64,000 bases of DNA from positions 256,001 to 320,000 of the IMG/VR virus record IMGVR_UViG_3300015615_000196; one strand, written 5' to 3'. The position numbers and the translations under genes were made by a program. Origin of the DNA: a virus. Lineage: Duplodnaviria; Caudoviricetes. This document shows, piece by piece, positions 37,236 through 57,826 of this stretch. Position 1 is the stretch's first letter. Each line of letters begins with the position of its first letter. The notes under the pieces are model-generated. The model was given only the letters and a program-made list of their open reading frames with translations. It did no database searches and had not been told where the DNA came from.

Positions 37236-38012
37236 ATGAAAGGTCAACTTACATTTCAGAACTACAAGTCTTACACGAAAGAAGATCAAAAGACTTGGGG
37301 TGCTCTTTTCGAACGTCAGGTGGATAACCTGAAAAAAGACAACAAGGTTGTCGAAGAGTTTTGGGAAGGTGTCAATAAGTTGAAAATCAAAAGAGGTGAA
37401 ATACCCAATTTTGAAAACGTCAACAAGATACTCAAGCCACTGAACAATTTTGAGATCATGGGTGTGACTGGTTTGCTGGATGATCAAATCTTCTTCCAGC
37501 TAATCAAGAATCGCAAGTTCCCGGTGACCACTTGGATTCGCAAACCTCACCAGATCGACTATATTGAAGAACCGGATATGTTTCATGACTTGCTCGGTCA
37601 CGTACCGTTCCTTGCTCATAAATCGTATACGGACTTACTGGTTGAACTTGCCGATGCTGCCTTACTTTCGTTCCAGAGAAACGACAAAGTGTTTCAGGAT
37701 GCGTTTGTGCGCTTTTACTGGTACAGTGTTGAGTTCGGTCTTCTCCTGAACAAAGAAGGAAAGCACCAGATTTACGGAGCAGGGATTCTTTCATCGTTCT
37801 CGGAGACAAACAAAGTGTTTGAAGCAGAGAGTGTGAAGAAGGATTTCAGCTACGACATTTTGAAGGAAGACTTCGATAAGCAGCACCTTCAAAATTTCTA
37901 CGCTGTGCTTTGTGGTCAGGACGGAGGCATTGGCTTTGCAAGTGGAATTGAGCGACTACGGGAATGGGTCGTTTATGTAAACGATCAACAACACGGGAGG
38001 CACAATCCATGA
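37236..38012 (+). CDS. phhA: Phenylalanine 4-monooxygenase (biopterin-dependent aromatic amino acid hydroxylase)
   Basis: YIEEPDMFHDLLGHVPFL (two Fe His), WYSVEFGL (Fe Glu), YGAGILSS. Confidence 0.9.
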   Translation: MKGQLTFQNYKSYTKEDQKTWGALFERQVDNLKKDNKVVEEFWEGVNKLKIKRGEIPNFENVNKILKPLNNFEIMGVTGLLDDQIFFQLIKNRKFPVTTWIRKPHQIDYIEEPDMFHDLLGHVPFLAHKSYTDLLVELADAALLSFQRNDKVFQDAFVRFYWYSVEFGLLLNKEGKHQIYGAGILSSFSETNKVFEAESVKKDFSYDILKEDFDKQHLQNFYAVLCGQDGGIGFASGIERLREWVVYVNDQQHGRHNP

Positions 38013-42260: not shown

Positions 42261-42540
42261 AAGTAGCAGGAATGTGGCGGCTTATGAACAGTCGCATTGC
42301 TTTTCGTGGCATTTCGGACATCCCGAAGTAATGGGTTAATAGTCCTCATGTTCTCCACTGTGGTTATATCACCACATTCCCCCTTACGTTATCCTTGTCC
42401 CTGTTAAGACAGGTGAGCCATTGCTGGCAAGTTCCCTTATCGGTTTGCTACAGTCCTGTGGTGTGCAAGAGCACGTTTCAGGGCGTGGGATGAAAAATTC
42501 GCCCTACAGTGTCAGTGGATTGTCTACCAATCCTCTACCT
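42261..42540 (-). ncRNA. ~280-nt highly structured RNA of unknown class
   Basis: Closing AGGTAG/CTACTT; hairpins GGATTG/CAATCC, AGGGCG/CGCCCT, GTGC/GCAC, GCCA-GCAA-TGGC, CCTGT/ACAGG and TTCGG/CCGAA; long-range GGAATGTGG/CCACATTCC. Confidence 0.6.
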
Positions 42541-42550
42541 ATTTTTCAAG

Positions 42551-42621
42551 TGGATACTGGATGATTCGAACATCCGTTAACCCCCTCAATGGGGCCGTTC
42601 TAACCGCTAAACTAAGTACCC
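42551..42621 (-). tRNA. Atypical tRNA with 6-nt anticodon loop (ATTGAG; possibly degenerate Gln-TTG)
   Basis: GGGTACT/AGTATCC acceptor, GTTT/GAAC D-stem, GCCCC/GGGGT anticodon stem, GGATG-TTCGAAT-CATCC T-arm. Confidence 0.7.
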
Positions 42622-42626
42622 GTTTT

Positions 42627-42795
42627 CGGGAAGGTTCGGAGTTCCACACGAACCTCTCCATACCTAATTCTGAATGTCGTGTGCGCTTCACAGCTACTCC
42701 CCTTGGATTAATGGTTTTCGATGGCCAATGGCTCCCCGCACAACGAGTACAAAACTTCAAACGGTATGGCGCATTCATACTATGCTACCTTTCCC
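42627..42795 (-). ncRNA. tRNA-shaped RNA with ~98-nt insert replacing the anticodon loop
   Basis: GGGAAAGG/CCTTCCC acceptor, GCAT/ATGC D-stem, CCATACC/GGTATGG stem, degenerate T-arm TTCG(T)G-TGGAACT-CCGAA. Confidence 0.65.
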
Positions 42796-42868: not shown

Positions 42869-42980
42869 TGGGAAGGGATGGACTTGAACCACCAACCTCT
42901 CAGCTTTGCGATCTGTAAAGATGCATACCATTGCATTTGATTTCCGCATCACTGAGTTCTCTAACTTGAGATACCTTCCC
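42869..42980 (-). ncRNA. tRNA-shaped RNA with 48-nt anticodon-loop insert (intron-like)
   Basis: GGGAAGG/CCTTCCC acceptor, TCTC/GAGA D-stem, CTCAG/CTGAG anticodon stem, GGTGG-TTCAAGT-CCATC T-arm. Confidence 0.75.
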
Positions 42981-42983
42981 ATT

Positions 42984-43095
42984 TCAGGAGCGTCATGCGG
43001 TCATTGATTGTGTGGAGGCTTTAGCCTAATTTCGATGCATGAACACCTCACCACTAAAACATTTCTGCGTTTCAATCAACAACCCTTTCTCCTGA
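42984..43095 (-). ncRNA. ~112-nt structured RNA
   Basis: TCAGGAG/CTCCTGA closing stem, TTGTTGATTG/CAATCAATGA stem, AGGC-TAAA-GCCT hairpin. Confidence 0.55.
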
Positions 43096-43103
43096 CCTTT
43101 TAT

Positions 43104-43209
43104 ACTGCTAAACATCACCGATGTGTTCATTCCATAACAGATACTGTTGCTCGATCAAAGACTTGGTTTAGTGCCAAAATTGCTCGACAGTACTCGATGT
43201 CTGTACAGT
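43104..43209 (-). ncRNA. ~106-nt structured RNA
   Basis: ACTGT/GCAGT, GTACTGT/ACAGTAT, TTTGG-CACTAAA-CCAAG, ACATC-GGT-GATGT. Confidence 0.45.
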
Positions 43210-43220
43210 TGGATTTCTTG

Positions 43221-43292
43221 CGCGGATACCCGGATTCGAACCGAGGTCAAGGGATTTAGAGTCCCCTGTTCTGACCACTAAACTATATCCAC
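43221..43292 (-). tRNA. Amber suppressor tRNA (anticodon CTA)
   Basis: GTGGATA/TATCCGC acceptor, GTTT/GAAC D-stem, GGGGA-CTCTAAA-TCCCT anticodon arm, CTCGG-TTCGAAT-CCGGG T-arm, G73. Confidence 0.92.
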
Positions 43293-43303
43293 GTATGTTC
43301 CTT

Positions 43304-43329
43304 TATACGAAAAAAGGGGACGCAAGGTT
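43304..43329 (-). promoter_or_regulatory. ECF-sigma-like promoter of the RNA operon (17-nt spacer)
   Basis: AACCTTGCGTCCCCTTTTTTCGTATA, 11 nt upstream of the suppressor tRNA. Confidence 0.7.
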
Positions 43330-57084: not shown

Positions 57085-57826
57085 CAACTTCGTTGACCCG
57101 AAGCGTTTGAATCTCGACAACGTTGAGGTTTACAAAGACACTTTGCTCAAGGCAACGCAGTACCCAATCGGTGAGACATTCAAGCACGACTATCGCGAGT
57201 ACAAGACAAACGTACTTGAACAAAGACGTGGTGAAGTCTTCGTAGAGAACATTGATTCAGTTGGTGCATTGATCAAATACAACGAAGCACCTACTTGTCT
57301 CCTGAATATGGCATCTGCCAAAACTCAAGGTGGTGGTGTTGCTTACGGTTCCAAAGCACAGGAAGAAGCACTCTTCCGTTGCTCGAACTTGGGGCTTTCA
57401 ATTTCGTCTGCACACTATCCGTTGGGTGACGAGAAGTTTTTGTACACGGTCGATGCCGTGTTCTTCAAAGATAAAGACTACAACGATCTCCCTGATGGTC
57501 ATGAAGCAGACGTAATCACTTGTGCTGCAATCAAAATTGTGGACGGTGTGAAGGAAGCGAACTACGAAGAACTGACCAACAAGAAGATTTATTCTATTCT
57601 CACATATCCTGCTTTCAGAGCAGAGAATCTTGTGGTAGGTGCGTGGGGTTGTGGAGTGTATAAGAACGATCCGGTATTTATAGCAAACACGTTCAAGAAG
57701 CATTTGATTACTTTGCGACACCTGTACGACAAAGTGATCTTTGCAGTCATCAATGACGAGAACAGTGTGGGCAATAATTACCAGATATTCAAATCCATTC
57801 TGGAAGATGGAACGCTTAAAGATTGA
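57062..57826 (+). CDS. Microbial-type poly(ADP-ribose) glycohydrolase (DUF2263/TIGR02452)
   Basis: LNMASA..GGG..GSKAQEEALFRCS catalytic motif, LVVGAWGCGVYKN. Confidence 0.9.
   Translation: MKIRNKHSNFVDPKRLNLDNVEVYKDTLLKATQYPIGETFKHDYREYKTNVLEQRRGEVFVENIDSVGALIKYNEAPTCLLNMASAKTQGGGVAYGSKAQEEALFRCSNLGLSISSAHYPLGDEKFLYTVDAVFFKDKDYNDLPDGHEADVITCAAIKIVDGVKEANYEELTNKKIYSILTYPAFRAENLVVGAWGCGVYKNDPVFIANTFKKHLITLRHLYDKVIFAVINDENSVGNNYQIFKSILEDGTLKD

Follow-up and report, generated by a model that had tools for sequence, protein, structure and literature searches.

A probably unspliced tRNA-shaped RNA with a conserved insert in place of the anticodon loop in a large phage genome

Bacteriophage T5 encodes two RNAs, RNA1 and RNA2 (NC_005859 rna1, rna2), which are annotated as 'tRNA-like stable RNA with unknown functions' and whose expression is annotated. 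Both keep an acceptor, a D-type arm and a T arm, carry a structured insert in place of the anticodon loop (46 nt in RNA1 and 30 nt in RNA2), possess a long variable arm and are sited among tRNA genes and other stable RNAs. In phage T4, the stable species 1 and 2 RNAs (rnaC and rnaD) are encoded in the tRNA cluster and their roles are unknown; RNA C possesses a T arm and resembles tRNA at its 3' end, and it lacks a normal D arm and cloverleaf (PMC3014915, PMC9697503). Annotation thus still assigns no function to these tRNA-like RNAs of T4 and T5, hence the interest of a tractable family. Inserts in tRNA genes are also known as the 'enigmatic' tRNA introns of the Lak megaphages of Prevotella (PMC6784885) and as the anticodon-loop introns of archaea and eukaryotes, which are marked by a bulge-helix-bulge (BHB) motif, here defined as two 3-nt bulges on opposite strands with a 4-bp helix between them. 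Further, the engineered tRNA scaffold of Ponchon and Dardel carries an RNA within its anticodon stem, where it is shielded by the acceptor, D and T arms, and scaffolds with inserts at the anticodon undergo processing and are stable in E. coli (PMC3753655).

We analysed a window of 64,000 nucleotides (C1:256001-320000) in a complete phage genome of 362,603 bp with direct terminal repeats. The genome possesses approximately 60 ordinary tRNA genes and gave no indication of genome-wide TAG recoding. No close relative was found among isolated phages, the top helicase match being approximately 25% identical. The host is probably a member of the Bacteroidota, as suggested by a 65% match of rfbB to Chondrinema and by a neighbouring small gene that is present in a Cyclobacteriaceae bin. 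The phage encodes RtcB (C1:344014-345078), an Rnl2-type RNA ligase and a CCA-adding/poly(A) polymerase domain, which occupies residues 624-981 of a 987-aa protein. The gene for this protein (G000 C1:228527-231490; L018:8527-11487) lies among structural genes, and the N-terminal 620 aa have no Pfam match. A gene for a biopterin-dependent aromatic amino acid hydroxylase (PF00351; window 37236-38012, plus strand) adjoins that of the RNA ligase and was not seen there in the loci of the relatives described below.

An earlier note on this DNA had described a tRNA shell with a 48-nt insert in its anticodon loop. Both are borne out, on the minus strand, where the element reads from 42980 to 42869 and the acceptor, D, anticodon and T stems are completely paired (Table 1). 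The variable region is a 5-nt loop. The element matched the Rfam tRNA model with 46.3 bits (E 6.5e-8), and its folding z-score was -3.56, none of 200 shuffled sequences folding as well. The incomplete CCA is normal for the tRNAs of this phage. In a genome scan, the element was the only shell found with an intact T arm and such an insert. A fold of the window copy with UUAC at a hairpin tip was 10 kcal/mol worse. We considered and rejected several other classes of RNA: a group I intron, which would need a larger insert; a C/D-box k-turn in the insert, which was not conserved in relatives; tmRNA, because pair 3-70 is G-C or A-U rather than G3-U70 and no tmRNA was called; and bacterial Y RNA (YrlA), because the window had no match to the YrlA model, relatives scored 21-23 bits against 69 and no TROVE domain was found.

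Table 1. Positions in the window of the tRNA-shaped element, its parts and the neighbouring non-coding features
Feature	Position	Strand	Remarks
Promoter-like motif AAC-N17-CGTATA	43304..43329	-	Same position in relatives; 15 sites genome-wide against 5-11 in shuffles, not enriched
Amber (CUA) tRNA, cassette head	43221..43292	-	Heads the cassette in close relatives too; sequence differs strongly between relatives
Conserved non-tRNA RNA A	43107-43217	-	Between amber tRNA and shell
Conserved non-tRNA RNA B	42984..43095	-	Ends 3 nt upstream of shell; not in Rfam; another hairpin RNA substitutes in some relatives
tRNA-shaped RNA gene, type-A shell	42869..42980	-	112 nt; discriminator A at 42869; CCA incompletely encoded
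Acceptor stem, 5' strand	42974..42980	-	Pairs with 42876-42870, 7/7; no G3-U70
D arm	42958..42971	-	Stem 4/4; 6-nt loop with a single G; stem sequence nearer paralog type C than type A
Anticodon stem, 5' strand	42952..42956	-	Pairs with 42903-42899, 5/5 Watson-Crick; U32-G38 extends stem
Insert in place of anticodon loop	42904..42951	-	48 nt
Conserved 4-bp insert helix, 5' strand	42945..42948	-	Pairs with 42910-42907; central helix of the BHB reading in the earlier note
Extra 5-bp hairpin	42921..42936	-	This copy only (compared with nine relatives)
UUACAG motif	42913..42918	-	UUAC in tip loop in relatives, on 3' side of internal loop in window copy
T arm	42877..42893	-	Stem 5/5, canonical loop
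Second tRNA shell	42627..42795	-	Insert of ~100 nt; altered, non-canonical T arm; also in L061 and L068; called by neither Rfam nor ARAGORN
tRNA-like gene	42551..42621	-	Short, variable, non-canonical anticodon loop; acceptor and T arm constant in at least 9 genomes
Conserved structured RNA	42264-42450	-	Just upstream of a 167-aa gene; shared by almost every syntenic relative and in part by the distant G004; not matched in Rfam

Relatives were gathered by synteny, using homologs of the proteins of the flanking genes to reach the contigs. Nine syntenic contigs carried a shell of the same type (type A) in the same cassette, with near-identical acceptor and T arms and an insert of 27-30 nt. A distant shell in G004, with a 21-nt insert and an imperfect acceptor, was left out of these nine. 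One type-A shell (L213:603-733) also has a hairpin of approximately 35 nt inserted in its D-loop. Over 22 anchored columns, the insert was 94% identical among the nine relatives; identity in the next gene was 57% for the protein and 47% at fourfold sites. When the cloverleaf and the insert helix were compared in eight relatives, 99% of the cells were paired and seven pairs showed two-sided change, a result matched by 0 of 500 shuffles, a control that relatedness inflates, and set against 45-58% in slid controls. The fourth pair of the 4-bp insert helix is G-C, U-A, C-G or A-U across the family, and UUAC is invariant in all ten members, lying in the tip loop in every one of the nine relatives. 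Thus, the simple pseudogene with a random recent insertion, which the earlier note had named as the outcome that would overturn its reading, did not emerge from the alignment: the insert is conserved and no homolog has a 7-nt loop. An exact search of IMG/VR with the 5' end of the element gave no match, blastn against isolated phages gave T-arm matches only, and searches of IMG/VR, metagenomes and GTDB with the insert motif returned chance matches or ordinary tRNAs and no further members. A literature search of incomplete coverage found no paper on this RNA family.

We then compared the insert with the BHB motif. The 4-bp helix that the earlier note had placed at the centre of such a motif is real and conserved, but the two bulges are not, and the window element fails the strict motif test. 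The AAG on the 3' side faces UGA on the 5' side, forming a 3x3 internal loop that the U32-G38 pair (pairing probability 1.0) reduces to 2x2, and the upper helix, of 3 bp, on which the GAA bulge would depend has a pairing probability of 0.05-0.09. The BHB fold as read amounts to -11.2 kcal/mol against -17.2 kcal/mol for the MFE-like fold, that is, 6 kcal/mol worse. A relaxed form of the motif occurred in 0.17% of shuffles, a rarity due nearly entirely to the conserved helix; given that helix, a 3-nt bulge followed by 2-3 pairs occurred in 2-15% of shuffles. The structure is thus at most a relaxed bulge-helix-loop look-alike. Further, both bulges are missing in all nine syntenic relatives. As the earlier note had pointed out, canonical cleavage would leave a 10-nt loop without U33; we found that no single excision yielded a U33 product in any of the ten sequences (eight excisions per sequence). 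A decoding tRNA has a 7-nt anticodon loop with U33, and the loop region comprises 48 nt here and 27-30 nt in the relatives. Intron calls by ARAGORN (His, Tyr, Val and Asn) were rejected because the orthologs disagreed. Accordingly, with bulges missing in relatives, UUAC and the helix conserved and no excision giving U33, the insert is not an intron, and it is not a recent insertion of random sequence either. The frame of acceptor, D, anticodon and T arms is intact, the insert is conserved and covaries, and there is no route to a 7-nt loop with U33.

The element is part of a conserved non-coding run (43329-42260) that comprises, in order, the promoter-like motif, the amber tRNA, RNAs A and B, the shell, the second shell, the short-loop tRNA-like gene and more structured RNAs. 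None of the structured RNAs other than the tRNA-like ones match Rfam. Except for the CUA tRNA, the tRNA-like genes of the cassette keep their ends and elbow region and have no usable anticodon loop. In relatives there are additional shells of other types, whose inserts span 15-60 nt, and shells with inserts recur in more distant phages. In one relative (L220), one shell type is present twice with different inserts. T-loop-like hairpins occur in the inserts of type B and type C shells (L061:8120-8239; L213:964-1081; L063:8628-8743), as in T5 RNA2. In a distant 345-kb phage (G007), L227:1501-1622 has a similar G-rich acceptor and an insert of approximately 60 nt, downstream of an AT-rich repeated leader. 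Elsewhere in the genome of the window, a lone tRNA-like gene (G000 C1:191735-191806, plus strand) has a D-loop without GG, an altered T-loop and an anticodon loop that resembles that of the short-loop gene in the cassette (Table 1), and further irregular tRNA-like genes with a long variable arm or an odd anticodon arm lie in the main tRNA arrays (G000 C1:59160-59272, 57645-57733 and 97827-97907, minus strand).

These results agree with the alternative offered in the earlier note, a non-decoding scaffold. We hold with considerable confidence that the element is unspliced, non-decoding and functional. Our preferred reading, which we regard as fairly probable, is that of a tRNA-scaffold RNA in which the shell would provide processing and stability and would display a ligand-binding hairpin. 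Conservation of the insert beyond the needs of processing suggests a ligand, a role that we judge likely though by no means assured, and the partner is most likely a protein. The cassette would be transcribed from the motif at 43329-43304, and host RNase P and 3'-trimming enzymes would cut at the shell, also freeing the 3' end of RNA B. CCA would then be added by a host enzyme or by the CCA-adding domain of the phage itself. The product would be a stable RNA that shows the helix and the unpaired UUAC on an arm longer than the ribosome could accept. Because the discriminator base varies between A and G across the family, the RNA is unlikely to be charged with one particular amino acid. The different inserts borne by the other shells of the cassette, and the shell type with two inserts in one phage, also speak for the scaffold reading.

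Because bacterial anti-phage defences attack tRNAs and phages counter with tRNAs, our leading guess for the role of the element, a tentative one, is an anti-defence decoy. Such a decoy or sponge would occupy a host tRNA-binding or tRNA-cutting anti-phage factor, and the mix of shells and inserts would vary between phages to match their hosts. Defences that cut tRNAs, and phage tRNAs that counter them, are established (PMC11464382, PMC11555353, PMC13056530); our literature search found no paper on anticodon-less decoys. More speculatively, the whole cassette might be a modular RNA arsenal, in which anticodon-disabled shells would display exchangeable aptamer-like inserts and neutralise host defences that target tRNAs. 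If this rather doubtful reading were true, RNAs like T5 RNA1 and RNA2 would form a general class of RNA-based anti-defence elements.

The shell might instead be punctuation only, cut by RNase P and 3'-trimming enzymes to release its neighbours, with an insert that merely blocks decoding. The modules of the cassette abut closely, RNA B ending just before the shell, and the loop of the short-loop tRNA-like gene varies between relatives, as would suit such a role. However, a role in release alone fits poorly with so conserved an insert, in which the helix covaries and UUAC never changes, and relatives have tandem shells with nothing between them to release. We consequently regard this explanation as unlikely.

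A second alternative concerns the window copy rather than the family. The copy is probably orthologous to type A, to judge from synteny, the identity of acceptor and T arm and the insert motif. It follows directly on RNA B, an order shared with L213 and L214, and precedes the second shell, an order shared with L061 and L068. Its acceptor is identical to type A at 12 of 14 positions with seven of the nine relatives, and its T arm at 12-16 of 17. The insert has the start motif of the family and UUAC(A/U)G, a combination found at a frequency of 8e-4 in shuffles in a post hoc comparison. The D stem (6/8) and the anticodon stem (6/10 with L213) are nearer paralog type C, so that the copy may be a mosaic of the two paralogs A and C. 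It is also atypical in that one D-loop G is lost and the extra hairpin shifts UUAC away from the tip loop. The earlier remark that the D-loop lacks GG therefore holds for this copy but not for the family, since every one of the nine relatives has GG in its D-loop. A covariance model of the family (R2) gave the window copy 51.7 bits, the top score in the genome and 5.6 above an ordinary tRNA, with the insert unaligned; an ordinary-length tRNA of another phage scored 52.3 with the same model. The loss of GG, the 20 extra nucleotides, the C-type stems and this low score would be expected if the family were functional and the window copy recombinant or decaying. Yet the four stems and the insert helix have stayed fully paired despite many substitutions, the family motif is retained and the RNA folds better than its shuffles, and we consider this explanation quite improbable.

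It is very improbable that the UUAC loop pairs with another RNA, for example with the anticodon loop of tRNA-Tyr in a T-box-like sensor, or that it mimics the anticodon loop of tRNA-Val. The 7 nt at 42919-42913 exactly complement the Tyr anticodon loop and also read as a U33-UAC-A37 Val loop, but we estimate that a 6-mer would match one such reading by chance in several per cent of cases, and UUACUG in L213 breaks both readings with no compensatory change seen. Pairing of the motif with 16S rRNA or with RNA A was likewise dismissed, since the complementary stretches are too short and show no compensatory change.

RtcB and Rnl2-type ligases are common in large phages, where they serve tRNA repair, and their presence does not imply splicing. 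Of the genes whose search the earlier note had suggested, RtcB was found, and the EndA/TSEN endonuclease domains were not: tRNA_int_endo (PF01974) and tRNA_int_endo_N (PF02778) had no match in the complete phage genome, with archaeal controls positive, and the catalytic domain PF01974 also had none in two complete relatives. Least probable of all, and scarcely credible, is thus the splicing that the earlier note had entertained, an intron-containing tRNA cut at a relaxed BHB or bulge-helix-loop motif and rejoined by the phage RtcB or Rnl2-type ligase: the 4-bp helix with a possible 3-nt bulge, the two enzymes and the precedent of the Lak introns speak for it, but the structure, the nine relatives, the missing U33 product and the missing endonuclease speak against it, and relaxed motifs are cut only by archaeal (αβ)2 and ε2 enzymes (PMC5829648). 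The markers of the host suggest Bacteroidota. Splicing at a BHB motif in a phage would be far more surprising than the unspliced scaffold that we prefer.

In comparison with known systems, the element shares with the BHB introns of archaea and eukaryotes an anticodon-loop insert with a 4-bp helix, and differs from them in that it has no two opposed 3-nt bulges, 37/38 geometry, U33 product or endonuclease. The Lak tRNA 'introns' (PMC6784885) may be related in kind: they too are conserved inserts in tRNA genes of large phages of Bacteroidota (Prevotella there, inferred here), but the Lak tRNAs have assigned anticodons and insert-free counterparts, whereas for the window element no anticodon can be reconstructed and the analysis turned up no ortholog free of the insert. 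Our results therefore counsel caution, as what is called a 'tRNA intron' in a large phage may be an insert that stays in the RNA. The engineered scaffold has the same design as the element; being artificial, it is a model of how the element would work and not a member of its family. T4 RNAs C and D are looser analogues, since RNA C shares the T arm and the tRNA-like 3' end with the element but is not matched by the Rfam tRNA model, which matches the element. The closest systems are T5 RNA1 and RNA2, which resemble the element in the arms they keep, in the structured insert in place of the anticodon loop and in their setting among tRNA genes and other stable RNAs. Unlike them, the element has a short variable loop and a different insert motif, and it shares no sequence likeness with them beyond short T-arm matches. 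By anatomy, the element and T5 RNA1 and RNA2 are of the same kind, although not of the same family. We conclude that the element is real, conserved and unspliced and represents a new family of a kind of phage RNA that is already known but has yet to be explained. In this family, small natural versions of 93-97 nt combine the covarying helix with a single invariant 4-base motif and offer precise targets for mutagenesis and pull-down.
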